A DNA stretch of 41,003 bases, taken from the IMG/VR virus record IMGVR_UViG_3300045988_002471, positions 1 to 41,003 of that record. The stretch is one strand, 5' to 3'. Below, piece by piece: positions 4,564-35,700 of this stretch. The notes below the pieces were generated by a model. It saw only the letters and a list, made by a program, of their open reading frames with translations. It ran no database searches and was not told where the DNA came from. The first letter of the stretch is position 1; every line of letters begins with the position of its first letter. Made by a program: the position numbers and the translations under genes. Source of the stretch: a virus (lineage: Duplodnaviria; Heunggongvirae; Uroviricota; Caudoviricetes).

Positions 4564-5988
4564 ATGTCTAAATTTATCCGTCGAGAGTACCAGAAGCTCA
4601 TGACTTCGTTCATGTTGCAACACCCTCGCTGTAATATCTGGTGCGGCATGGGAGGGGGTAAAACCTCCTCTACTATGTGGGTGCTAAATCGACTGTTCCG
4701 TAATGGGCAACTTAATGACGACGACCGAGTGTTAATTCTGGCCCCTTTACGTGTTGCGTCCGGTACGTGGCCCGCAGAACAAGAGAAATGGAACTTCCCT
4801 TGTCTGCGTGTCGTCGATGCGACCGGTTCAGAGAAGCGCCGCATCGCGGCGCTGGAGTCAGATGCTAACGTGGTGTGCACAAACTACGAAGTTATCGAGT
4901 GGCTGATTGACTACTACGGCAAAGACGACTGGCCTTTTACGGTTATCGTTGCTGATGAGAGCACGAAGCTGAAATCTTTCCGTAGCCGTTCTGGAGGAAG
5001 CAAACGGGCTAAGGCGCTAAGCAAAGTGGCGTTCGGAAAGGTTAAGCGTTTCATTAACCTGACAGGCACACCGTCGCCGAACGGCCTCAAGGACTTGTGG
5101 GGGCAGAACTGGTTTATCGACGCTGGCGAGCGCCTTGGTTCTTCGTACACGGCATTCACCGACCGCTGGTTTAACTCAGTACAGAAAGGCAAGTCGGCGA
5201 TGGCGCGGGAGTACCACGCACGCCCGGGCGCGGATAATGAAATTCACCAGAAGATGAAAGACATAAGCCTCACTATTGACGCCGCTGAGTGGTTCGGGTG
5301 TGAAGCGCCGATTATTGTTCCGGTTGAAATCGACCTGCCGAAGAAAGCACGTCAGGCGTACATCGATATGGAGGAGAAGTTATTCGCGGAACTTGAGAGC
5401 GGGGAAGTGGAAGCTGCTAACGCTGCTGCGAAGACGTCGAAGTGCTTGCAAATTGCATCCGGTGCCGTATATGTATCGGGGCCAGACGGCGAAGCAACCA
5501 AAGAATGGGAGAAAGTGCACGACACGAAACTGGACGCGCTTGAGTCGATTGTGGAGGAGTTACAGGGTGCGCCGCTGCTTGTGGCCTATCAGTTCAAGCA
5601 CGAACTGGAGCGTATCCTTAAGCGATTCCCACAAGCACAGGCGTTTGCCAAAGGAGCGAAGGGTAATAAGCAGATGGAAGCGTGGAATCGTGGAGAAATC
5701 GAAATCTTATGCGTACATCCTGCGTCAGCGGGCCACGGCATATCGCTACAAGACGGCGGCCATCATATGGCGTTTTTCAGTCAGGGATGGAACCTCGAAC
5801 ACTATTTGCAGGTTATCGAGCGTATAGGTCCAACACGGCAAAAGCAATCTGGGTACAATCGCACCGTTTTTATCTACAAGATTATCGCTAAAGATACGTT
5901 GGATGAAGTAGTTGCGGCTCGTACCGACGAGAAAAAACAAGTACAAGACATACTACTAGAGTATATGAAGCGCAGAGGTAAAAAATGA
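4564..5988 (+). CDS. SNF2/DEAD-like superfamily 2 DNA helicase
   Basis: GMGGGKT Walker A-like, VIVADESTKLK DExx box, LTGTPSPN motif; start set to ATG 4564 after RBS AAGGA. Confidence 0.8.
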   Translation: MSKFIRREYQKLMTSFMLQHPRCNIWCGMGGGKTSSTMWVLNRLFRNGQLNDDDRVLILAPLRVASGTWPAEQEKWNFPCLRVVDATGSEKRRIAALESDANVVCTNYEVIEWLIDYYGKDDWPFTVIVADESTKLKSFRSRSGGSKRAKALSKVAFGKVKRFINLTGTPSPNGLKDLWGQNWFIDAGERLGSSYTAFTDRWFNSVQKGKSAMAREYHARPGADNEIHQKMKDISLTIDAAEWFGCEAPIIVPVEIDLPKKARQAYIDMEEKLFAELESGEVEAANAAAKTSKCLQIASGAVYVSGPDGEATKEWEKVHDTKLDALESIVEELQGAPLLVAYQFKHELERILKRFPQAQAFAKGAKGNKQMEAWNRGEIEILCVHPASAGHGISLQDGGHHMAFFSQGWNLEHYLQVIERIGPTRQKQSGYNRTVFIYKIIAKDTLDEVVAARTDEKKQVQDILLEYMKRRGKK

Positions 5989-6482
5989 CCTATTGGAATG
6001 AGCTTTTTAATTACGACCCTAATACCGGGGTACTATCATGGAAAAAGTGGCGTAGGGGTGCAAAAAGAAGTTTAGTAGCGGGCACAAAGGAGCGTGACGG
6101 GTATGTGCGTGTGAAACATAAAAACAAGCATATCCCCGTTCACAGAATAATTTGGGATATGTGCAACCCTAATGATGTTCTGACTCCCGGATTCGAGATA
6201 GACCATATAAATCACATAAGGGATGACAATAGAATATTAAACTTGAGAAAAGTAGTTAAGATTGATAACAACCGCAACACGACAAGAAACAAGGCTAATA
6301 CTTCTGGGGTTGTAGGTGTACATTTTAACCGTTCGAGAGGTAAATGGGTCGCCGTTATCTACGACAATCGTAAGCTCGTTTTCTTGGGGCACTTCTCTGA
6401 TTTCAAAGACGCTGTTGCTGTCAGGAAAGCAGCGGAAATAAAATACAATTACCACGAAAACCACGGGTCAGAAAAACCATGA
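5985..6482 (+). CDS. HNH homing endonuclease with AP2 domain (paralog of 1204..1677)
   Basis: IDHINHIRDDNRILNL HNH motif plus SGVVGVHFNRSRGKWVAVI AP2-like region. Confidence 0.75.
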   Translation: MTYWNELFNYDPNTGVLSWKKWRRGAKRSLVAGTKERDGYVRVKHKNKHIPVHRIIWDMCNPNDVLTPGFEIDHINHIRDDNRILNLRKVVKIDNNRNTTRNKANTSGVVGVHFNRSRGKWVAVIYDNRKLVFLGHFSDFKDAVAVRKAAEIKYNYHENHGSEKP

Positions 6483-6616
6483 ACATCATAGCCCCGATTC
6501 CGGCATTGCAAAAACGTATCAAGGAACTCGAAGAAGAGGTTCTACGACTACGGCAGCAAAGAGACGCCGCTAATGCACAACTGGCGTTCATACTGGAGAA
6601 GTTATCTGAAGGGTAG
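6479..6616 (+). CDS. Small coiled-coil protein (45 aa)
   Basis: Own translation MNIIAPIPALQKRIKELEEEVLRLRQQRDAANAQLAFILEKLSEG; ATGA coupling to HNH stop. Confidence 0.3.
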   Translation: MNIIAPIPALQKRIKELEEEVLRLRQQRDAANAQLAFILEKLSEG

Positions 6617-6620
6617 AGAA

Positions 6621-6648
6621 AAGGCCCCGTTTGGGGCCTTAGTTTTAT
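6621..6648 (+). terminator. Rho-independent terminator (AAGGCCCC-gttt-GGGGCCTT + T-run) ending the plus-strand early operon; convergent with tailspike 3' end
   Basis: Perfect 8-bp GC stem then AGTTTTATTT. Confidence 0.7.
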
Positions 6649-9599
6649 TTATCTTCTAGTGCTGCCAGCCTCTTCTCGAACTCGCGCATCTTCTTACGCT
6701 GATAGGCAATCTCTATGAAGAACATCTGGTCCGCCCTAACCCCCCATCTGCCGCCGGGAGGGGATACTTGTACAGTCTGGCCCTCTTCATCAATATCATA
6801 CGCAGCTTCAATTGGGTCGTAGCACAAGAAAGCATATTTACAATCGGTAGAATCTTTCTCCATAAGCCCATGGTTGACCAAGATGTCTCGCACATCTTGG
6901 GCTATCACACCGAAGTGTATCCTTGCAGTGTCACCCTTGATTGCTAGGCTTTCAAGCCACTTAAAAGATATTACATGTATATCTTCCCATGCGGTAAGGA
7001 GTTGTCCCTCAATTTCCTCTTTATTCGTCTTAAGTGTACCATCAGACGTGTTTATCGTACCGGTGGTCGCGTACACCGTAGTCCACCTGTTACCTGCCGA
7101 ACCTAAAGGCACTTGCGAGTCTAAGTAAGGAAGGAAATTGTTGTATGAGTAGAAGCCTCCTGACGCATACATAATAGCCCTGTTAGGCGTTGCATGGTTT
7201 GCCCCGTACAGTTGCAGCAACGCACCATCGGAACTGGATGCGCCATCACCACCGCTAACTATCAGTCTTTGAACCGATGGGGTTTTAGTGGGGACTGTTT
7301 TTGAAATCAGCCCGTAATCACCATCAAACCGTGCGCGCACGGCAGACTGTTGTGTACCATCGTATTCCAGCCCCGTTACATGCAGGGAGTACACGCTTAC
7401 ATCATTGTCAAACGTTAAAGGTGCTTCTACATGGCGTACACCATCTACCCCCATGGCGACAGGTATTGTACGGTTAGGAGTTGCTCCGTATTTGAAATCA
7501 CGTGATACGTACGGGTGGTCTTCAATCTTTATCCGGTAGCTATATAAGTCAGCCGGATGCCCATCATGTTTGTACCATAACTTCGCACTGTTATCCCCTA
7601 TGCTCCAGGGAGAGAAGAAGTCTTCCCCACCAAAGATATAGTACAACCAGCCATCTTTAACACAGACCGAGCCGACGCCGACAGCAGAGTTAACGATATG
7701 ACCCTGGTATATTTGGTCGGTAATATTAAACCACTGAACATCATCTAAAGATGAAGGCCAGGACGACACATTGACTTTGCACATAAAGGTCCGTGGATAC
7801 GAACCTTCATAGCGGCTGTCCGGCTCGCCTCCTTCCCACTCGCCAAAGGCACGCTCTGTACCAAAGATGTAGAGATAGTCACCTACTTTAGCGAACGGAA
7901 GATTGGAGTGATGTACATTGTTCGGAAATCGCAAGTAGCTCCAGTTTTGCCCAGAATCGGTGCTCATCGCCAGTGTAGAGCCAGGGGAAGTAGGTAATGT
8001 GCCGCGTGTGGTAAGGTAGAGCACCCCACCATAACTTTTCACGCACGGCTCAGAAGCGTTATCAGCGTATGCCTGAGCGACAGTGCGACGAACGAATACG
8101 CCTGGATTGTCATACACGTTACTAAAATACAAGACGCCAAGACGACGAGGGGACACATCGCCGTTGTGGTAGCCGACAGCGATAGTGTAGTTAACATCAT
8201 CTATAACCGCAAAACTATGTGTCTCCGTGACACACAAATCAGCGTTAGTGGAGTATGCTACCCCAGGCAATTCGGTAATTTCCCACGGGCTGTCCCAGAA
8301 TCGCGTTGCGAAGTTCCAGGTAACACCCGCATTGTTTATGGTGGAACTCGCCGGGGTTGAGAGCGTAACAGTGAACGTATTTCGGTTAATTATAGACGAA
8401 ACCGTCATATTACCCGATACGCCAGTTGCCGATGTATTAGAGAAGTTAACCGCATCTCCTGCTTTTAGACCATGATTTTCTATAACAATGGTAGCAGTAG
8501 TGGAGCCAGAACTAATAGTTATTCCGCCGGTTGGGTGTCTAAAATACGGCATTGGGCGTGACCAAAGTTCTGCCTTCTTCATCCGCATATTAGATAAGTA
8601 GCGGGTTTCTATAACTGCATATAATCGGTTGCCGCACGTACCCATGCTCATGCAGTGGTAGTTAACTCTGTCCGAGGAAACACTAGCATTATAGTCAGCA
8701 TGGATCGGGGTCAACCACTCAGGCATTGACCAAGTCTGCCCGTCGTCACCAGAGCGAACCCAAGCTACATGTAAGTTTTGAACGCCATGTCGTTCGCCTG
8801 CCATAAACGGAGCGTAAATAACATTGTCGTAGACGAAAGTTTTATCCTGCGTCCATGCGTTGTAGAACGGGGTATCCGTCACCTTAGTTAGTGAGCCGTT
8901 AAAGAAGCCATCAGCTACATAAGTAAGCGGTTGCCCAGCTACGCGCTCGTAAACGAATGCAGCATTCTTAAATTTACTAATGTCAGGTAATTGGGAAACT
9001 TTATAAGTCAAACCCCTGCCGTCTATAATCCAATTGTTGGGGGAAGCTGCTAATACATTAAAAATAGATTGAGTATCATCAGTTACGCCGTCGCCCACGG
9101 CGCCCCATGCGCGCAGGTCGTATTCGTCCTTCCATCGCGCCACATGTAAATCTGGGTACAGAATTGCACCGTTTACATCAGATATTTGATGCCGCAGTAT
9201 GACCGACCCGACGGGCTGCCATGCCCCATCTGCCACGCCACCGGTGGACTGCGGAGAGGATGACGCTGGGATAATTTTTGGCAGAGCACCCAACCAATAG
9301 TACCAGTCCCCGTCACCGCCAGAGGACGACGGCCACAAAACTGCGGTGTTTCGGTCGTTAGCGGATAGTGTACCGCCTGACGTGAAATCAAAATCTGCCA
9401 GTTTAAAACCTGCGTCACGCAACACAGCCGGCAGTGTCTTCTGTGTCTGCCCTGTAACTGCGTTGGTCGCGTAATCGATATCAGAGCCACCAGCAACGCC
9501 GCCGGATTTACCAGTGATAACCTCGGCTTCGAAAATCTGGTGTTTCGTGGCGGTCTGTAAATCCGCCAGGCTTAAAACGTCACCGCATCCGCTTGACAT
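6645..9599 (-). CDS. Tailspike, sialidase-like (Asp-box/BNR) with C-terminal intramolecular chaperone (peptidase S74-like) domain; possible endosialidase
   Basis: 984 aa; Asp-boxes SGDDGQTW and STDSGQNW; GAVGDGVTDDT motif; C-terminal ...HFGVIAQDVRDIL...AALEDK autoproteolytic chaperone signature. Confidence 0.8.
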   Translation of the reverse strand: MSSGCGDVLSLADLQTATKHQIFEAEVITGKSGGVAGGSDIDYATNAVTGQTQKTLPAVLRDAGFKLADFDFTSGGTLSANDRNTAVLWPSSSGGDGDWYYWLGALPKIIPASSSPQSTGGVADGAWQPVGSVILRHQISDVNGAILYPDLHVARWKDEYDLRAWGAVGDGVTDDTQSIFNVLAASPNNWIIDGRGLTYKVSQLPDISKFKNAAFVYERVAGQPLTYVADGFFNGSLTKVTDTPFYNAWTQDKTFVYDNVIYAPFMAGERHGVQNLHVAWVRSGDDGQTWSMPEWLTPIHADYNASVSSDRVNYHCMSMGTCGNRLYAVIETRYLSNMRMKKAELWSRPMPYFRHPTGGITISSGSTTATIVIENHGLKAGDAVNFSNTSATGVSGNMTVSSIINRNTFTVTLSTPASSTINNAGVTWNFATRFWDSPWEITELPGVAYSTNADLCVTETHSFAVIDDVNYTIAVGYHNGDVSPRRLGVLYFSNVYDNPGVFVRRTVAQAYADNASEPCVKSYGGVLYLTTRGTLPTSPGSTLAMSTDSGQNWSYLRFPNNVHHSNLPFAKVGDYLYIFGTERAFGEWEGGEPDSRYEGSYPRTFMCKVNVSSWPSSLDDVQWFNITDQIYQGHIVNSAVGVGSVCVKDGWLYYIFGGEDFFSPWSIGDNSAKLWYKHDGHPADLYSYRIKIEDHPYVSRDFKYGATPNRTIPVAMGVDGVRHVEAPLTFDNDVSVYSLHVTGLEYDGTQQSAVRARFDGDYGLISKTVPTKTPSVQRLIVSGGDGASSSDGALLQLYGANHATPNRAIMYASGGFYSYNNFLPYLDSQVPLGSAGNRWTTVYATTGTINTSDGTLKTNKEEIEGQLLTAWEDIHVISFKWLESLAIKGDTARIHFGVIAQDVRDILVNHGLMEKDSTDCKYAFLCYDPIEAAYDIDEEGQTVQVSPPGGRWGVRADQMFFIEIAYQRKKMREFEKRLAALEDK

Positions 9600-13035: not shown

Positions 13036-13532
13036 TGCATAGGGTCCCAAATTCGTGGAAACGTTGATTGTGCGGTTCCGTAGGCTTTAAGGAAACACCC
13101 CAGCCCATCACCATAGCAGCCGTACAAATCGGGCAGATTGTTAATCAGGCACTGGTTCTCAAGGTCCTGGAACGGTGATTTCTCGGCGGTTGCCGTGAAG
13201 GTGATTGTCCAGTTAATCCCGTCTTCGGTGGACTCGGCGATAGTGGACGTAATGGTTACCTGATAATCTTCGATGCCCATGCCGAAGTCGTGCGCCATCC
13301 AGAAACTTGACGCACCACCGTCTACTTTTTCGAGGAACGACAGAAACGCCTGCCGTCCCAGTGCCGATGTAATCAGGGTTACGCTAACAGGGAACACGTC
13401 GTAATACGTGTCACGGCCCTGACGCACCCCGCCACCGGCTAAATCTACACTCCAGACGTTGTTACGTCTGGTCATTGAGTAGCCTTTCGATACAATTGGC
13501 TTAAGGCTACGTGGGAAATATAAGTCGCTCAT
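13032..13532 (-). CDS. Minor tail protein (distal tail, downstream of tape measure)
   Basis: 166 aa; start overlaps tape-measure stop. Confidence 0.45.
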   Translation of the reverse strand: MSDLYFPRSLKPIVSKGYSMTRRNNVWSVDLAGGGVRQGRDTYYDVFPVSVTLITSALGRQAFLSFLEKVDGGASSFWMAHDFGMGIEDYQVTITSTIAESTEDGINWTITFTATAEKSPFQDLENQCLINNLPDLYGCYGDGLGCFLKAYGTAQSTFPRIWDPMQ

Positions 13533-15805
13533 TATTTAAACCCCGGCGCATTTCTTGTGGCTTTGCGGGCCTTGCTAATCTTACTGTTGCTGTTCTGCAA
13601 AGATGCAGCAACTTGCTCTTCTATGATGATACGCAGACGGCCTTCATCATCTTGCTCAGTAGATACGTTGCCAATTTGAGAACTCGTGTTGTTTACGATA
13701 GTAACATTAGACGGGCCGGAAGAAGACCCGTTTTGCCCCATAATTTCTTTCATCTGCTGCGCGGTGCGAACACGCGATGCACCCGCGGGCATGATAACTT
13801 CTGGTTTACCGCGTTCAGCGATAGTAGAAGCCTGCCCGGCGGATAACTGCCCACCCTGTTCACGCGCAGACCTGATAGCGGAAACCTGCGCCATACCCGC
13901 CCCAACGGCAGCGGCGGCCGCTACAGGCGCTAAGAACGGGCCGACTACAGGGATAGCCGCCGTTGACTTATACGCCTCAATAGCCGCGGTGTACGTGGCG
14001 ATGGTGGCCTGTACGATAGCGAATGCCTTGTACGCACCAGAAGCCTCCCCCAACGCAGACCCGATGTTTGAGGCCATGTTACCAAAGGCGGTTGCCGTTG
14101 CGTCGGCGCGCTTCGTAGCATACTGCTCGTTGATGGCGTTAAGCGCGGCCTGGTACTGTTTCTCATTAATAAGCCCCTGCTCACGGTACTTATCCGCTAC
14201 CGCCAGTTTCTGCTGTTCCTGGATGTCGAGAAGCTCAAGCTCAGTAGCGTTCTGACCCATAATCTGAGCCATGAAGTCGTCACCTTTCTGCTGCTTTTCC
14301 TGGGCTTCTTTCTGGCGTTTATCCAGTTCATCTTGCCGTTTTTGCCCGGCTTCGAGGACGATAGCTGTTTTAGCCTGTTCGTATTCTTTCAGCGACAGCG
14401 CGCCCTGGCTGTAGAACTCTTTTGCCTTAGCCAGTTTCTGCTGTTCCTGCGCGTCGATAGCCTTTAACTCATCGTTGTTCTGGCGAGCCAAAGTGTCGAG
14501 GTAATCCTGCGCCTGATTCCGCAATTGTTCTGCTTTCTTGGCGGCGGCTTTTGCTGCTTTATCGTCGGTGTTTCCTGCCCCGCCAGTTCCGCCCTTTTTA
14601 TTAACAAGACTGGCTAAGTCAATTTCTTGCTTCTTGCGCTCGTCGTACTGCTTGCGCTGTTCCTCAATTTCTTTCTTACGCTGCTTAGACCTGTTGGTAA
14701 TGGCCTGTGATTCTGCCTCAGCGCGTTTTATGCTAGCGGCGTACGCGGCGTCGGCCTCTGCGGTCAGGTTTTTAAATGTTAGCGCCGCCGTTTTGCTCGG
14801 GTCAAACACGTCGGCAAGGGTCTGCCCTAACGCTACAGCGTAATCGTCGATGCGCTGGAACCACGCAATAACCTCGTGAAATGTCTGCTGGATGTCCGGC
14901 AACCACTCACGGATGGCATCCGGTATAGTCCCCAGCGAGTCAGACATATCAACGGATTTGTCATCGGTATCGAATGCCAGGTCATTCAAGGCGTCGGAAA
15001 TAAACTTGAATGACTCATTGAACAGCGCCACCCAATCCTGGAGCGTGGCGGCTATCTCATTAGACGCGATGGCGTCGGTAAGCGCCGTGATAGCGTCTTC
15101 CGCTGTGGCCGCTTGCTCACCTACGGCGCCGCCAAAACCAGACCGCGCCACCGCAAGAACAAGACCGTCGAAGGAGTCGGCGAGGCTCGATAACTGGCCG
15201 TCTAGCGTCTTAGAGCGCGTCTCCATCGCCCCGGCAAAATCGGTGTTGCCGATATTCAGGAGGTATTTCTGAATCTCTTCGGAGTTCTTCTTAACCGTGG
15301 TCGTTACGCCGCGGAACGTGAACGAAACTGTATCTGCCTGTTGCGACGACTTGATGCCGAACTCTTTTAAGCGCTCAAATTCAAATGTACTGGCGTCGGC
15401 AACTGCCTCAATCATCTGATTAAGGTCTTTACCCATAGCCGCCGCGGTGTTGCCGTAGGAGATTAATGCCTCTTTGCTGGGGTTCAGACCGAGCGCAACG
15501 AGCTTGGTAAACCCCTCTACCGCCTGATTGAGACCGTACGGGGTCTCTTTTGCGAACTGTTGCAGGACGCTGAAAGCCTTAGCCGCGTTCTCGGCGCTCC
15601 CGGTCATCGTGATGAGGCTGGAGTTCAGCTTATCGAAGTTTCGCTGGGAATCCACCAGCGCGCTGAACACCTGCTTAGCGGTTTCCAGACTGACAACGGC
15701 GGCGGCGGCGGCCCCCGCCGCCTTGGTAAGCCCGTTCAGTTGTGATGTGGTTTTATCGACGCCGGTCGATGATACTCGTACTATCAAGCTAGCGGTATCA
15801 GCCAT
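13532..15805 (-). CDS. Tail tape measure protein
   Basis: About 757 aa, Ala/Gln-rich coiled-coil composition; follows chaperone pair; start set to ATG 15805 after RBS GAAGG (track start is TTG). Confidence 0.8.
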   Translation of the reverse strand: MADTASLIVRVSSTGVDKTTSQLNGLTKAAGAAAAAVVSLETAKQVFSALVDSQRNFDKLNSSLITMTGSAENAAKAFSVLQQFAKETPYGLNQAVEGFTKLVALGLNPSKEALISYGNTAAAMGKDLNQMIEAVADASTFEFERLKEFGIKSSQQADTVSFTFRGVTTTVKKNSEEIQKYLLNIGNTDFAGAMETRSKTLDGQLSSLADSFDGLVLAVARSGFGGAVGEQAATAEDAITALTDAIASNEIAATLQDWVALFNESFKFISDALNDLAFDTDDKSVDMSDSLGTIPDAIREWLPDIQQTFHEVIAWFQRIDDYAVALGQTLADVFDPSKTAALTFKNLTAEADAAYAASIKRAEAESQAITNRSKQRKKEIEEQRKQYDERKKQEIDLASLVNKKGGTGGAGNTDDKAAKAAAKKAEQLRNQAQDYLDTLARQNNDELKAIDAQEQQKLAKAKEFYSQGALSLKEYEQAKTAIVLEAGQKRQDELDKRQKEAQEKQQKGDDFMAQIMGQNATELELLDIQEQQKLAVADKYREQGLINEKQYQAALNAINEQYATKRADATATAFGNMASNIGSALGEASGAYKAFAIVQATIATYTAAIEAYKSTAAIPVVGPFLAPVAAAAAVGAGMAQVSAIRSAREQGGQLSAGQASTIAERGKPEVIMPAGASRVRTAQQMKEIMGQNGSSSGPSNVTIVNNTSSQIGNVSTEQDDEGRLRIIIEEQVAASLQNSNSKISKARKATRNAPGFK

Positions 15806-16130
15806 GATTTCTACCTTCAAAGATTGCTTCTAAGCCCATGATAATGTCTATCTCGAACAGGCTAAGCTGTTTTTGCGTAACATCGAGATAGGCTTTCAGG
15901 TCTTGCCACGTAACAGATTCTCTTGCAAACAATACTACAGCGTCCTCGCGCACGTGTCGCGTAAACTTAATGTCGCAATACGTCTCAAAGGTGGATATAA
16001 AAAGGGGCGGGCATTCTGGCCCGCCCCGTCGCGCTGCACGTTTTTTCTTATCGATTACACCCATCGCGATAAGCGCCTGTTCGTGTCCGTCGGCGATAGA
16101 ATCAAACTCTCTGATTTTATGCTTATCCAC
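15798..16130 (-). CDS. Tail assembly chaperone T-like frame, probably expressed as a G-T fusion by -1 frameshift
   Basis: Frame is open from 16181 with no ATG; -1 relative to the upstream gene; GGAAAAG at 16166..16172. Confidence 0.45.
   Translation of the reverse strand: MDKHKIREFDSIADGHEQALIAMGVIDKKKRAARRGGPECPPLFISTFETYCDIKFTRHVREDAVVLFARESVTWQDLKAYLDVTQKQLSLFEIDIIMGLEAIFEGRNHG
16004..16035 (-). terminator. Intragenic terminator-like hairpin (GGGGCGGGC-N6-GCCCGCCCC then TTTTTATAT on minus strand) inside the T-like frame
   Basis: Perfect 9-bp GC stem at 16004..16027 with a U-run on the coding strand. Confidence 0.45.
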
Positions 16131-16162
16131 AAACTCGTAGGTGGCGAACCTGTACAGCGCGT

Positions 16163-16579
16163 CTACTTTTCCTGTAATACTTTACGCTCGGCGTTATGGA
16201 ACGCCGCCACCTGTGTGCCTAATGCCTTGAACTGGTCCAGCAATTTGTTAAATGCTTCTTTAGAGAAAGGCTCATCAAAGCTCCAGCCGTTTACGACTTC
16301 TGCCGCGAGTTGCCGGTTGAGGTCTTCCGCCAGTTCGTTAATAGCCAGGTTATATTCAGTATAGTCGCCGGATTCTTTGGCGGCTTTTTCCAGTTCTTCG
16401 AAACGCGCCAACCCGCGACGGTACGCAATAATGAAAGCACGCCCCGCTTTAACGGCGACATCCGCATCGGGACTTACAACGTTAAGCCATTCACCGGAGT
16501 CTTCGCCGTTTGGCAGGAGAATCGGCATCTTCTTGCCCGCCAGTGCTTTCTCTTCGAAATAAAAATCAGAAAGTTTCAT
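16163..16579 (-). CDS. Tail assembly chaperone (lambda G-like)
   Basis: 138 aa, acidic; directly upstream of T-like frame and tape measure. Confidence 0.55.
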   Translation of the reverse strand: MKLSDFYFEEKALAGKKMPILLPNGEDSGEWLNVVSPDADVAVKAGRAFIIAYRRGLARFEELEKAAKESGDYTEYNLAINELAEDLNRQLAAEVVNGWSFDEPFSKEAFNKLLDQFKALGTQVAAFHNAERKVLQEK

Positions 16580-16687
16580 TCTTTAATCCTTTGGTTAAGA
16601 GGTTACAGGTTAACGATAAATGCGCCAGACGGGAACCACCCGCTTTTCGTGTGCGACACTAGGCGCAAACTTATTCTATCACATTAC

Positions 16688-16716
16688 TTGCACACCCCAA
16701 TATAATAGGGTACTAT
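16688..16716 (+). promoter_or_regulatory. Promoter TTGCAC-N17-TACTAT with operator-like palindrome (16703..16720) driving the plus-strand island
   Basis: -35 at 16688..16693, -10 at 16711..16716; the ~38-bp block recurs at 34662..34700 and 35663..35700. Confidence 0.55.
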
Positions 16717-16746
16717 TCACTTACACCAACAATGAAGGGGTTTAAA

Positions 16747-16938
16747 ATGTCCAGTTTACCAGTTTCCTTAATTCTGTTTGCACTGCTCGCTTATTTCGCG
16801 CCTTTCCTGGTTGCGTACTTCCGTAACCATAAAGCGAAGTTAGCGATATTCATGGCTAATCTGTTTCTTGGTTGGGTTCTGCTGCCGTGGGTATTTATTT
16901 TAATCTGGGCTTGCAACTCGAATGTCAAAGAGAAGTGA
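16747..16938 (+). CDS. Small two-TM membrane protein, superinfection-immunity (Imm)-like
   Basis: MSSLPVSLILFALLAYFAPFLVAYF...NLFLGWVLLPWVFILIWACN; start at ATG 16747 after RBS AAGGGG; Imm assignment is from memory of the family motif. Confidence 0.45.
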   Translation: MSSLPVSLILFALLAYFAPFLVAYFRNHKAKLAIFMANLFLGWVLLPWVFILIWACNSNVKEK

Positions 16939-16976
16939 GCTAGTATAGGACAAATCCTAAACACGAGGAAATAGGC

Positions 16977-18107
16977 ATGGCCCAGAAGAAAATAACCGAC
17001 GAACAGTTACAGGAAGAATTGAACGCTGGGATGAAGAATATCGACATTGCTCGTAAATACGGCATCTCAGACCGCGTAATTCGTATCCGTAAAGCGAAGC
17101 TGGCTAAGAAAGGCGTAGGTCACGGGCGCGACGTTAGTCACCTTGTGCCGGACGGCTACAAGATTAAAGGAACGTCGTCACTGGTGGACGAGTTCGGCAA
17201 CACTAAGTTGCAATGGGTTAAAACCGACACTGACGCCGAACGTCAGGTTGAGTTGATGAAGGCCGTAATCGAGGGCATGAAGTCGGAGATTACCCCCGTT
17301 GCTCCTGTTAAAGCCGTTCGCGCCAAACGAGACGACAAGCTACTCAACCTTTACACTGTGTCTGATTTCCATCTCGGTATGCTGGCCTGGGCTGACGAGA
17401 GCGGCGACGACTGGGACATGAAGATTGCGGAAGACCTGTTCTCCCGCTGGTTCGACGCAGCGTTCCAGAAAGCACCGGATGCAGGAACAGGAGTTATTAA
17501 TCTGCTGGGCGACCTTGCGCATTTTGATAGTCTGGACGCCGTTACACCTGCCAGTGGTCATGTTCTTGACGCTGACACCCGCTATCAGAAACTTGTACGC
17601 TACATGATTCGTATGGTCCGCCGTGTCATTGATATGGCTCTCGTTAAACATAAAAATGTTCGCTTGCTTATCGTGCAAGGTAACCACGACGAAAGCGGAA
17701 TGATTTGGTTGGCTGAGATGTTCAGTACGCTATACGACAACGAGCCGCGTGTGTTCGTCGATACGTCGCCGGATGTTTACAAGATGGTGCAACACGGCAA
17801 AACTACGCTGTTCTTTCACCACGGCCATAAAGCACGATTCGATGCTATCGAACCAGTTATGATCGCCAAGTTCCGCAAAGCGTTCGGCGAGAGTGTTTAC
17901 AGCTACGCCCATATAGGACACCTGCACCATCAGAAGATTGTAGAAAGCCGTAACATGATTGTTGAACAACACCGCACCCTGGCGGCTAAAGACGCCTACG
18001 CCTCGCGCGGCGGATGGATGTCGGGCCGCAGTGCAAACGTAATTACTTATAGTGCCGAATATGGCGAGGTCGCACGTTTAACTATTTCACCGGAGATGCT
18101 TGGATGA
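16977..18107 (+). CDS. Calcineurin-like metallophosphoesterase with N-terminal HTH-like domain
   Basis: Phosphoesterase motifs DFHLG, GDLAHFD, GNHDE, HHGH, GHLHH; N-terminal about 60 aa resemble a small HTH. Confidence 0.7.
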   Translation: MAQKKITDEQLQEELNAGMKNIDIARKYGISDRVIRIRKAKLAKKGVGHGRDVSHLVPDGYKIKGTSSLVDEFGNTKLQWVKTDTDAERQVELMKAVIEGMKSEITPVAPVKAVRAKRDDKLLNLYTVSDFHLGMLAWADESGDDWDMKIAEDLFSRWFDAAFQKAPDAGTGVINLLGDLAHFDSLDAVTPASGHVLDADTRYQKLVRYMIRMVRRVIDMALVKHKNVRLLIVQGNHDESGMIWLAEMFSTLYDNEPRVFVDTSPDVYKMVQHGKTTLFFHHGHKARFDAIEPVMIAKFRKAFGESVYSYAHIGHLHHQKIVESRNMIVEQHRTLAAKDAYASRGGWMSGRSANVITYSAEYGEVARLTISPEMLG

Positions 18108-18589
18108 AAGATATTGTGATTTTCGATTTAGACGGGACATTGGCAGATGGTACTCATCGTTTACACCTGCTGCCGAAAGATAACTACGGCGAAACCTGGG
18201 CGTGGAAACCATTTAACATGGCGTGCAAAGACGATGCACCCATTAAAGATAACATCGAACTGTGTAACGCCATTAATCGTCGCTATGCCGTTATTATCTT
18301 AACAGGCCGTAGTGATGACGCGGAAAAAGAAACCAGAATGTGGTTGCAGCGCCACCGCGTCGAATTTTATCAGTTAATCATGCGCAGCAAACACGACAAC
18401 AGAAAAGACATCGTAATTAAAGAAGAGGTGTTGCGTGCTATTGGGCCGGAGAGAATCTTGTGTGCATTCGACGACTCTCCAGCGGTAATAAAGCATTTCC
18501 GCGAACTCGGCATAACCACTCACGCAGTTACTGAATACGACTGTAACGGGAACTCTACACACTTAAAACCACATGGGAGTGATAAATAA
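18104..18589 (+). CDS. HAD-family phosphatase, T4 polynucleotide kinase 3'-phosphatase-domain-like
   Basis: VIFDLDGTLA (DxDGT), IILTGRS, K, AFDDSP motifs; resemblance to T4 Pnk phosphatase domain recalled from memory. Confidence 0.65.
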   Translation: MKDIVIFDLDGTLADGTHRLHLLPKDNYGETWAWKPFNMACKDDAPIKDNIELCNAINRRYAVIILTGRSDDAEKETRMWLQRHRVEFYQLIMRSKHDNRKDIVIKEEVLRAIGPERILCAFDDSPAVIKHFRELGITTHAVTEYDCNGNSTHLKPHGSDK

Positions 18590-19143
18590 TGGCTAAGGTA
18601 ATTATTCTTAATGGTCCTGCGGGCTGCGGGAAAGACACACTTGCTAGGGCGCTGGTAGAAATGGGCTTTGCGAAGGGTGTCGCCAGTTTCAAGAATCCGA
18701 TGTTCAATATTGCTATGGCTGCGTTAGGCCAGGATGCTTACCGCGAGTTTCTCGACGGCTACGACGACCGGGCGCGGAAAGAAAAGCCAGAGGGTTTCCT
18801 TAACGGGTTGTCTCGGCGTCAGTTCATGATTGCCATTTCCGAGCAATTCATTAAACCGGTATTCGGTGATGATTATTTCGGCAAGTATCTTGCCGGAAAC
18901 TTGCCCGACGGCAACGAAGTTTTTGTAGTGTCCGACGGTGGATTCGCCAGCGAAGTAGCCCCTATCGTTGCCGCGGGGCATGATGTGAGAATCGTCCGCT
19001 TGCACAGAGACGGCCATACGTTTGAAGGGGACAGCCGCGGTTACCTGTACGATATTGATGGTGTAAAAGATTACGACACCTACATCATACCGGGTGACGT
19101 TAAATCGAACGTTATAGACATTGCTTTAAAATTAGGTTTGTAA
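18589..19143 (+). CDS. P-loop kinase (dNMP-kinase-like or polynucleotide-kinase-like)
   Basis: Walker A GPAGCGKDT; about 184 aa; start overlaps upstream stop. Confidence 0.6.
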   Translation: MAKVIILNGPAGCGKDTLARALVEMGFAKGVASFKNPMFNIAMAALGQDAYREFLDGYDDRARKEKPEGFLNGLSRRQFMIAISEQFIKPVFGDDYFGKYLAGNLPDGNEVFVVSDGGFASEVAPIVAAGHDVRIVRLHRDGHTFEGDSRGYLYDIDGVKDYDTYIIPGDVKSNVIDIALKLGL

Positions 19144-19180
19144 GAAAAAAAAAAAGGCCCCGAAAGGGGCCTTAGTTTTA
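19144..19180. terminator. Bidirectional rho-independent terminator (A-run, AAGGCCCC-gaaa-GGGGCCTT, T-run)
   Basis: Perfect stem flanked by A12 and T-run between convergent genes. Confidence 0.75.
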
Positions 19181-20350
19181 TGCGTAGGTGATACGTTGAA
19201 TTACGATAGACGACTGGTACTGATTGCCGGTAGCCTGGCCTTCAATGGACTGAGTGATTGACTCAGGCCCACCAATCTCAGGTGTAACCGCCGTAAGCTC
19301 TGCACGTTTCAAACTGAAAGACATAGCCCCGTTTACCCCTGCCAGAATAGAGTTAATCTCTACCTGCTGCTCGTTGATAAACTTCTGAATCATCGCCATG
19401 TCGTACAGCTTGCCAGAGATAGAGAATGTGTTAGCTGCGCGTCCACGTTCGACGAACGCCACGCTACTGTTACCGAGTTCGAACTGCGCGGAAGCTCCGT
19501 TGTCGTTGGTGATGGTGAGAGTATCGCAACGCAACGGCGTGGAGCCATCGAACACCGACACATCTACCGACGAGAACGGCTCATCGGTGAACGTAACCTG
19601 AGAGAAATCAGAGCCAGACGGCGACGCGGTAAGAATCTCCTGACTCAGGCCGATGAACGGGAAGCTGCCGGTGACCATGGCGTTAACCGCCTGCTCTACG
19701 GTAAAGCCAGAGATTTCCACACCTTTGGTCAGCATGTACGCGTCCGGGGTACCACACTGGCCCTTGAACCACGTCAGGATGGAGAACGTCTTACACGCGT
19801 TACCGGTTTCCAGCTTGTCGCCAGTTTTTGCGTCAGTGGTTACTGTCTCTGCTGTCAGCGTGTGCTGAATACCTGCGCCCGTAACTACCAGAGCGGAAAC
19901 CGCGGTCACGATAAACGGTTTTGCGTTGTCGCCGGTTAAGTCGGTGAACGCAATCAGGTCGCCAACTTCAACGCCGTCGGTAATAAAGCTGCCATCGGCA
20001 CGGGTGAACGTCTTGCCTGCGGGTGCAACGGTAATCGATAACCCTGACAGAGAAACCCCGGACTGCCACGTAGAGCCTAAAGCGCCCGCCAGCCAGTCGT
20101 CCTGGCTTTTCGAGCTAAGCTCAATTGCGTACTCCCCGCTAACCTGTTTGTTGCCGGTGCGGATGGAGGTAGTTTCACGGCTGCCGTCCAGTTCGTTGGA
20201 TGTCAGTGTGTCGCGGGTAATGGCAGGAACGCCACCCGTGTTACGCAACGGCGACCATACCGGGTTAGTCGGTGTTACACCCGGGGTCGCTTCCGCCACA
20301 TAGAATTGCGCCGTATTCGCGCCCTTAAAAGGAGTTGTAGCCATATTCAC
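19178..20350 (-). CDS. Major tail protein (putative)
   Basis: 390 aa; directly downstream of tail-completion genes; ATGA coupling. Confidence 0.55.
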   Translation of the reverse strand: MNMATTPFKGANTAQFYVAEATPGVTPTNPVWSPLRNTGGVPAITRDTLTSNELDGSRETTSIRTGNKQVSGEYAIELSSKSQDDWLAGALGSTWQSGVSLSGLSITVAPAGKTFTRADGSFITDGVEVGDLIAFTDLTGDNAKPFIVTAVSALVVTGAGIQHTLTAETVTTDAKTGDKLETGNACKTFSILTWFKGQCGTPDAYMLTKGVEISGFTVEQAVNAMVTGSFPFIGLSQEILTASPSGSDFSQVTFTDEPFSSVDVSVFDGSTPLRCDTLTITNDNGASAQFELGNSSVAFVERGRAANTFSISGKLYDMAMIQKFINEQQVEINSILAGVNGAMSFSLKRAELTAVTPEIGGPESITQSIEGQATGNQYQSSIVIQRITYA

Positions 20351-34637: not shown

Positions 34638-34661
34638 CTCTGTCTCCCCTCTCATTTGTGT

Positions 34662-34700
34662 AAATGAATAGTAGCCTATTCTATCTTAGTGTGCAAGTAA
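34662..34700 (-). promoter_or_regulatory. Promoter TTGCAC-N17-TACTAT with palindromic operator GAATAGTAGCCTATTC (34666..34681)
   Basis: Perfect 6-bp half-site inverted repeat overlapping the -10. Confidence 0.55.
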
Positions 34701-34703
34701 ATT

Positions 34704-35634: not shown

Positions 35635-35662
35635 TTCTAAATTCCTTATGTCTCGTTTCGAT

Positions 35663-35700
35663 AAGTGAATAGTAACCTATTATGTTGGGGTGTGCAAGAT
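35663..35700 (-). promoter_or_regulatory. Promoter TTGCAC-N18-TACTAT with operator GAATAGTAACCTATTA (35667..35682)
   Basis: About 38-bp block nearly identical to the reverse complement of 16688..16725. Confidence 0.55.

Follow-up and report, generated by a model that had tools for sequence, protein, structure and literature searches.

What is a block of four genes, read from the opposite strand, doing in the middle of the tail module of a siphovirus? The question is raised by the IMG/VR virus record IMGVR_UViG_3300045988_002471, a stretch of 41,003 nucleotides that we analysed over its whole length (the window, hereafter) and that represents nearly all of a Kagunavirus genome (Guernseyvirinae; K1G, K1H and K1ind-type coliphages). 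Between two minus-strand tail genes lies a plus-strand island that codes, in this order, for an Imm-like membrane protein, a metallophosphoesterase (MPE) with a helix-turn-helix (HTH) domain, a HAD phosphatase of the Pnk type and a deoxynucleoside monophosphate (dNMP) kinase. We give slightly better than an even chance to the view that this island is an early superinfection exclusion and DNA-precursor (dNMP salvage) operon, transcribed apart from the tail genes. Salvage is argued for by the 51% identity of the kinase to an assayed enzyme, the recurrence of the MPE, HAD and kinase genes (the trio) in one order in other phages, their coupling, the nuclease type of the MPE and the early-type promoter; a study of 522 Drexlerviridae independently reached the same reading.

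The last of the four genes (18589..19143, plus strand) encodes the 184-aa dNMP kinase (DNK), and its start overlaps the stop of the HAD gene (TAATG). The initial annotation had called the product a P-loop kinase, which its match to phrog_139, the dNMP kinase family, confirms (E 3e-46). The kinase aligns over its full length (residues 1-172) with R1DNK of phage Rao1, at 51% identity (E 2e-62); its P-loop, GPAGCGKDT, places K15 exactly where R1DNK has it, and this motif is invariant in a seven-sequence family alignment. R61 and L138, whose columns are invariant in the family alignment as well, correspond in the alignment to two of the four positions at which Rao1 phages that escape the Kongming defence carry mutations (R61Q, L136P). 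In an hhalign comparison with T5 Dnk (probability 94.8%), the 67 aligned columns reach beyond the P-loop into family-specific motifs, while only 22 P-loop columns of the kinase family align with T-even Pnk. R1DNK converts dAMP, dGMP, dCMP and dTMP to the diphosphates (dNDPs) and requires K15 to do so, its deletion lowers dATP during infection, and it triggers the Kongming (KomABC) defence, whose dITP alarm signal is made with the help of phage dNMP kinases (Zeng et al., bioRxiv 10.1101/2024.12.20.629578). By its close homology to this assayed enzyme, the island protein is assigned as a dNMP kinase, and a phage that carries a kinase of this type should therefore be detectable by Kongming.

Just upstream, and overlapping the MPE stop by its start codon (ATGA), lies the gene of a stand-alone HAD phosphatase of the Pnk type (18104..18589, plus strand, 161 aa). 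It matches Pfam HAD_PNKP (E 9.6e-20) and phrog_415 (E 2e-66); among PDB chains the closest by sequence are Pnkp1 (4xrp, E 3.7e-13) and T4 Pnk (5uj0/1ltq), and hhalign aligns it with the phosphatase domain of T-even Pnk (residues 157-296) at a probability of 97.8% (E 9e-13). The resemblance to the T4 Pnk 3′-phosphatase domain that had been noticed at first sight is thus well founded. The family-invariant residues are D8-x-D10-G-T, T67-G-R69, D98-x-R-K-D102 and D123-D124; the alignment does not identify the equivalent of T4 R176 clearly. When T-even Pnk was searched against the window with tblastn, only the HAD gene was found, and Pnk residues 1-150 matched nothing. GenBank annotators have repeatedly labelled this protein "polynucleotide kinase", a label that is misleading, since only the phosphatase domain is present and the neighbouring kinase is a dNMP kinase; readings of the locus as an end-healing system that are built on this label are misleading in the same way. 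We found no assayed stand-alone Pnk-type HAD in the searches made.

The third member of the trio, the HTH-MPE (16977..18107, plus strand, 376 aa), consists of an N-terminal HTH of the LuxR/sigma-r4 type that a beta-hairpin/helix linker connects to a C-terminal two-metal phosphoesterase domain. It matches phrog_704 over its full length (E 2e-167), a family whose name, "DNA repair exonuclease", is a putative one, and, remotely, phrog_284 ("exonuclease"); the match to Pfam Metallophos stays below the cut-off. The family is large, being present in 2051 of 50,697 phage records and forming 4637 clusters at 50% identity among 1.84 billion proteins, and its N-terminal HTH, recognised by many HTH models, is a feature of the family. 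In 61 diverse homologs D130, H132, G178, D179, N236, H237, H282, G314 and H317 are invariant, and H182, D184, D238, H284 and H315 nearly so. All five metal-ligand motifs of the Mre11/SbcD type are therefore present (DxH, GDxxHxD, GNHD, HxGH and GHxH). Taken together, the phrog_704 match, the invariant metal ligands and the HTH models bear out the original description of a calcineurin-like phosphoesterase fused to an HTH.

Homolog searches with the MPE alone or with a mixed alignment as query returned just 88-99% identical proteins, and sufficient diversity for a 32-sequence alignment was obtained when distant members served as query. The AlphaFold2 model made from this alignment has a pLDDT of 74.5 and a pTM of 0.65, with a well-predicted MPE core. 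In a fold search its closest matches were MPEs of the nuclease type (Mre11/SbcD/PolD-DP1), and cyclic-nucleotide phosphodiesterases of the Rv0805 type were also among the matches; in BFVD it matched uncharacterised phage MPEs only. Searches of PDB sequences added little: the 61-sequence MPE profile retrieved Mre11/SbcD and "Nuclease MPE" at a non-significant E of about 0.3, and single-sequence or small-profile searches got no further than the P-loop or the HTH for the kinase and the MPE. The least confident segments of the model, residues 137-145, 185-199 and 337-349, coincide with the conserved family motifs LAWxEExGxDW, AVTPxSGHxLDxD and TLAAxDAYAxRxG. As far as the model allows, these three family-specific segments are probably substrate-binding loops without a counterpart in solved MPE structures. 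We infer that the protein is a two-metal phosphodiesterase that looks active and is nearest to the nuclease branch. Literature searches revealed no assayed member of the HTH-MPE family, nothing on Guernseyvirinae and metallophosphoesterases, and nothing on the host-DNA-degradation genes of T1; one Kagunavirus genome paper does not mention the island genes. The MPE and the HAD were also considered as possible relatives of MisA and MisB of Metis (calcineurin-like plus HAD), a relation that we set aside because, compared at the level of domains, the pairs coincide only in their domain classes (the island HAD matches Pfam HAD_2 with an E of 0.17).

Could these three enzymes repair RNA instead? The initial annotation had taken the kinase, the phosphatase and the phosphoesterase together as a (t)RNA end-healing set, in which the kinase would act on 5′-OH ends, the HAD and the MPE would clear the 3′-phosphates and 2′,3′-cyclic phosphates that anticodon nucleases leave, and a host ligase would seal the break. 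The nearest relatives of the HAD are indeed the phosphatase domains of T4 Pnk and Pnkp1, GenBank repeats the polynucleotide kinase label, and the MPE superfamily includes the phosphoesterase of CthPnkp. However, the lambda-phosphatase/CthPnkp clade has GDxxDRG as motif II and GNHE as motif III, according to definitions from the Shuman laboratory, and the island MPE carries GDxxHxD and GNHD instead. The kinase belongs to the dNMP kinase family, with an assayed relative whose established function is a different one, and has nothing but the P-loop in common with Pnk, so that its proposed role as the 5′-OH kinase does not hold. No ligase was found in the window, either by tblastn with two phage DNA ligases or as a KxDGxR motif, which agrees with the initial statement on this point, and a genome 96.7% identical has none in its gene table; no tRNA gene was found in the window. 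End-healing fails because it needs a 5′-OH polynucleotide kinase and a ligase, whereas the kinase here is a dNMP kinase and there is no ligase; we consider it very improbable. The alternative given at the outset, a dNMP kinase combined with a nucleotide-directed phosphatase, is the better supported one.

The same three genes recur in distant phages. Rao1 carries them as gp56-gp57-gp58 in the order MPE, HAD, kinase, with 45%, 49% and 51% identity to the island proteins; the Klebsiella Webervirus KLPPOU149 (gp07-09) and the podovirus S2 of Erwinia (Autographiviridae; about 49-50% identity per protein) keep the same order. In 80 kinase-centred IMG/VR loci, the HAD gene lies upstream on the same strand in 66, the full trio is found in 24, and the kinase stands alone in 14; the order HAD then kinase is constant among the linked loci, often with overlapping codons. 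In the 2026 study of 522 Drexlerviridae an exonuclease-holin-endolysin-spanin module is persistent, the MPE (as "exonuclease") occurring in 508 of the 522 genomes at the end of the replication module, and the polynucleotide kinase (PNK) and dNMP kinase genes are the commonest ones right after the exonuclease, which its authors read as "enhancing nucleotide supply". Solo MPE genes adjoin lysis genes in other Drexlerviridae and in Dhillonvirus, Vibrio and Rhizobium phages. The trio of Erwinia phage S2 has a DNA ligase gene directly behind it (6362-7315 for the arrangement), and in Campylobacter phage F357 (3654-4976) a ligase gene lies directly upstream of an MPE homolog without HTH; these neighbours hint that the MPE may act on DNA ends in some lineages.

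It could thus be argued that the MPE and the HAD, as a 3′-phosphatase, process blocked or damaged DNA ends for replication, recombination or repair, such as 3′-phosphate nicks from host nucleases, and so open them to polymerase and ligase, the kinase being a mere neighbour with a role of its own. The phosphatase of T4 Pnk acts on DNA 3′-phosphates, the closest folds of the MPE are DNA-end nucleases, its HTH domain suggests DNA binding, and its presence in nearly all Drexlerviridae at the end of the replication module, together with the ligase neighbours in S2 and F357, would fit such a role. Nevertheless, the tightest linkage is that of the HAD with the kinase (the 66 loci above) and not that of the HAD with the MPE, the present phage has no ligase, and the ligase adjacency in T7-like genomes may simply mirror the usual class II gene order. 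We consider DNA-end cleaning unlikely as the function of the island.

Another view is that the genes share no pathway, the site being a hot-spot of morons in which unrelated accessory genes sit under one promoter. Indeed, what follows the MPE is the HAD and the kinase in Kagunavirus but other cargo in Jerseyvirus. In Salmonella phage ST1, a Jerseyvirus, the corresponding region (5128-6143) contains a 76-aa remnant that matches the C-terminal part of the ATPase-like phrog_2452 and phrog_17613, and a second replacement gene for an Ant/Rha-like anti-repressor (phrog_63); as this cargo differs at the same position, the site is a variable cargo slot. Within Kagunavirus, the IMG/VR loci have MPEs that are 94-99% identical, HADs that fall into two allele classes (94-99% and 83-86%) and kinases that are 81-97% identical, a pattern that points to mosaic recombination inside the island and that contrasts the mosaic HAD and kinase alleles (81-99% overall) with the MPE. 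Moreover, the region 16600-19200 matches 220 phage records and is covered to at least 80% in only 49 of them. Against a chance assembly stand the identical order of the trio in a Guernseyvirinae siphovirus, several Drexlerviridae and an Autographiviridae podovirus, and the coupling of the genes, and we find it quite improbable that they have no pathway in common.

The kinase and the HAD also raise the question of counter-defence. Several defences sense mononucleotides from DNA breakdown: dAMP feeds the dITP of Kongming, and Metis and PUA-Cal-HAD sense m6dAMP from degraded host DNA. The HAD, like T5 Dmp, and/or the kinase could drain such dNMP alarm signals, or the MPE could hydrolyse cyclic or oligonucleotide messengers, as its fold matches to phosphodiesterases of the Rv0805 type would permit. 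T5 Dmp, a HAD 5′-dNMP phosphatase, is a proven anti-Kongming factor, Dmps co-occur with DNKs, the island HAD aligns weakly with T5 Dmp over the HAD core (BLASTP E 1e-4 over 48 aa; hhalign probability 57.5%, E 1e-4), and it is always found upstream of the kinase. However, it is much closer to Pnk 3′-phosphatases than to Dmp. Furthermore, Rao1 has the orthologous HAD (gp57) and is still strongly restricted by Kongming, from which T5 Dmp in trans rescues it; this suggests that the HAD of Rao1 does not drain dAMP effectively, and we down-weighted it as a Dmp-type factor. PADLOC gave no match for three of the island proteins and only weak P-loop-level matches for the kinase (E 0.017 or worse), and no anti-defence family was matched by any of the four. 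Counter-defence thus seems rather unlikely. A particular form of it, in which the trio would keep the m6dAMP and dAMP released by infection-time DNA degradation below defence thresholds, we hold to be distinctly doubtful. If it were true, the Pnk-type HAD would be an unrecognised second class of phage nucleotide phosphatase, always preceding the "dangerous" kinase, and the HTH-MPE would be a nuclease or phosphodiesterase feeding or policing the mononucleotide pool.

The first gene of the island (16747..16938, plus strand) accounts for the exclusion part of our proposal. Its 63-aa product matches Pfam Imm_superinfect (PF14373, E 9.3e-13, 48.3 bits against a gathering cut-off of 27.9) and phrog_1039 (E 4.7e-23) and has two hydrophobic, potentially transmembrane segments at about residues 5-23 and 32-54; the early description of a small Imm-like membrane protein is thereby upheld. 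A GAAGGGG Shine-Dalgarno sequence precedes the ATG at 16747, which is also the start used in the annotation of Escherichia phage vB_EcoS_fTaEco01; an alternative start at 16732 would give 68 aa. Most likely, judging from these family matches, the product is an inner-membrane protein of the T4 Imm type that blocks superinfection.

When is the island expressed? Its predicted promoter, TTGCAC-17-TACTAT (16688..16716, plus strand), is a weak match to the sigma-70 consensus (7/12), and a generic promoter scan skipped it and chose an overlapping ATCACA-17-TATAAT at 16678..16706. It is one of a family of three. The second copy (35669..35697, minus strand) repeats the 29-nt string with 2 mismatches, where 0 occurrences would be expected by chance, and lies directly upstream of the block of small early genes, divergent from an HTH gene. 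The third and looser copy (34658..34701, minus strand) keeps the -35 and the extended -10, that is, the ACTTGCACAC and TACTATTCAyTTA parts, with a different spacer. Since a copy precedes the early-gene block and Jerseyvirus ST1 keeps both hexamers and their 17-nt spacing, the assignment of the island promoter as early-type, a copy of the early promoter of the phage, appears well supported. The initial annotation had described an operator-bearing early-type promoter; the early type stands, but no dyad symmetry or inverted repeat was found in the promoter region that would mark an operator. The whole family takes the form ACTTGCACAC-N13-GGnTACTATTCAyTTA (16685-16724 on the plus strand, 35661-35700 and 34660-34699 on the minus strand). 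The only hint of an operator is the near-identical spacer CCCAAyATAATAGG in two of the three copies, and the family could, with this shared spacer, be a binding site for a phage regulator.

The one set of expression data for a Kagunavirus, a coarse RNA-seq time course of phage K1B4, groups a superinfection immunity gene, presumably the counterpart of the island Imm gene, with the DNA polymerase and methylase genes and not with the capsid and tail genes. This grouping fits an independent transcription of the island and does not settle its timing.

At the other end, the island and the convergent tail tube gene have in common an intrinsic terminator, AAGGCCCC-GAAA-GGGGCCTT (19154..19173), which was detected on both strands (-17.4 and -16.4 kcal/mol, z-scores -4.05 and -4.72), in agreement with the bidirectional terminator described initially. 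The stem is followed by 11 T residues on the minus strand but by no more than 4 on the plus strand, which makes the terminator stronger for the tail tube transcript. Downstream of this bidirectional terminator, the minus-strand tail operon requires a promoter of its own. The block CAGACGGGAACCACCCGCTTTTCG (16626-16650), located between the start of the tail chaperone gene and the island promoter, is the same in Kagunavirus and in Jerseyvirus ST1, with diverged sequence around it. On the plus strand it folds into a short hairpin with a T-run behind it, and it might serve as an insulator terminator or, alternatively, belong to the leader of the minus-strand tail operon. A 41-codon open reading frame (16620-16745; TE1_020 in fTaEco01) spans both the island promoter and this conserved hairpin and is probably not a real gene.

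The anatomy of the locus agrees with an insertion. The four island genes are the only long plus-strand open reading frames between the minus-strand genes for a tail assembly chaperone (16163..16579; phrog_15027) and the tail tube (19178..20350; phrog_290). The chaperone gene belongs to a pair (15798-16579, minus strand) with a programmed frameshift, according to the annotation of a relative, and the tape measure gene (13532..15820) comes directly after this pair, so that, the island aside, the tail genes follow the usual siphovirus order. The corresponding tail tube and chaperone genes of T1 adjoin each other, and we therefore regard the island as inserted at this tail-gene junction. The last three genes overlap (ATGA at 18104-18107, TAATG at 18587-18591), each with a Shine-Dalgarno sequence in front, and consequently form one translationally coupled unit. 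With the open reading frames, the flanking minus-strand genes and the coupling all in place, a four-gene plus-strand island within the tail module, as first described, is what the genome contains. The GC skew changes sign over the island, and its GC content is slightly below that of the flanking tail genes. The region 16600-19200 is 96.7% identical to fTaEco01, in which the same four genes are annotated; the gene table of that genome lists its own polymerase, primase-helicase and nucleases and no other nucleotide-metabolism genes. An Rfam scan of the window found no RNA family, and an NCBIfam search of the island proteins gave nothing above cut-off.

We therefore propose the following scheme for exclusion and salvage. 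An accessory operon between the tail tube and tail chaperone genes would be read from a copy of the early promoter. Its Imm-type inner-membrane protein would block superinfection. The HTH-MPE would digest DNA, either that of the host or damaged and processed ends, to 5′-dNMPs, and the Pnk-type HAD would strip blocking phosphomonoesters, which may be 3′-phosphates on DNA ends, 3′-dNMPs or pdNp. The kinase would convert the 5′-dNMPs to dNDPs, from which the host Ndk would make dNTPs for the family-A DNA polymerase of the phage.

Several observations weigh against this scheme. In T1 the MPE gene lies about 35 kb from a HAD-HNH-kinase group, and the linkage of the trio is thus not obligatory; some phages carry the kinase alone, and Jerseyvirus keeps Imm and MPE at the same site with an Ant-like gene in place of HAD and kinase. 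The deletion of dnk in Rao1 has no laboratory fitness cost (bioRxiv 10.1101/2024.12.20.629578), and salvage is therefore dispensable in that phage. The K1B4 time course, coarse as it is, labels the Imm gene "late" in its own scheme. Finally, the HAD is closest to polynucleotide 3′-phosphatases, whose known role is in end repair rather than in salvage.

Much of this was already public: dozens of Kagunavirus genomes have all four genes annotated, members of the kinase family have been studied biochemically, and the Drexlerviridae synteny has been described. The discovery value is accordingly low, and the remaining interest lies in how two very widespread phage proteins, the stand-alone Pnk-type HAD and the HTH-MPE, work as enzymes; for their substrates the strict gene order with the kinase provides a concrete hypothesis. 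There is also a practical side, as Kagunavirus phages are K1-specific therapy candidates that carry the kind of kinase that triggers Kongming, which predicts a host-range liability.

How do the island proteins compare with known systems? Like T4 Imm, the membrane protein is small, matches Imm_superinfect above the cut-off and has two transmembrane segments; unlike T4 Imm, it is shorter, and its exclusion role is a predicted one. The kinase has the GxxGxGKDT P-loop (K15) and the SFKxPM, DR..KE, DGGF and RLHR..F.GDSR motifs of R1DNK and of the DNKs of Klebsiella phage VAC2 and phage KarlJaspers. Apart from R1DNK, the DNKs of the family alignment, among them those of VAC2 and KarlJaspers, are 44-49% identical to it. 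It differs from T5 Dnk (250 aa) and T4 gp1 by its shorter length, and its N-terminal 72 residues alone align with T5 Dnk.

Like T4 Pnk (PseT) and Pnkp1, the HAD aligns with the whole 3′-phosphatase domain and keeps the DxDGT, (S/T)GR, D-x-R-K-D and DD motifs. Unlike them, it has neither a fused Pnk-type kinase domain nor a partner ligase, and the neighbouring kinase, which shares only the P-loop with that of T4 Pnk, is of another family and is encoded downstream rather than forming an N-terminal domain. Like T5 Dmp, it is a HAD phosphatase of a phage that also carries a DNK, with a similar DLDGT..HR N-terminal motif and a similar cap region; the similarity is weak, however, and Rao1, which has the orthologous HAD, is still sensitive to Kongming. 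The MPE resembles those of Mre11, SbcD and PolD-DP1 by its five metal-ligand motifs (D130/H132, G178/D179/H182, N236/H237/D238, H282/H284 and G314/H315/H317). It differs from Mre11/SbcD in having no Rad50/SbcC partner, none being listed in the gene table of the relative, and no capping domain; its model shows the HTH and linker where the capping domain would be.

The island trio also has a known counterpart in the "DNA repair exonuclease - PNK - dNMP kinase" cluster of the Drexlerviridae, whose three proteins are orthologous (41-51% identity) and whose genes keep both order and strand. In those phages the cluster ends the replication module just before the lysis genes, its genes being dispersed in T1. 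Here, by contrast, the trio forms an inverted island in the tail module; an Imm gene precedes it, a separate copy of the early promoter serves it, and it shares a bidirectional terminator with the tail tube gene.

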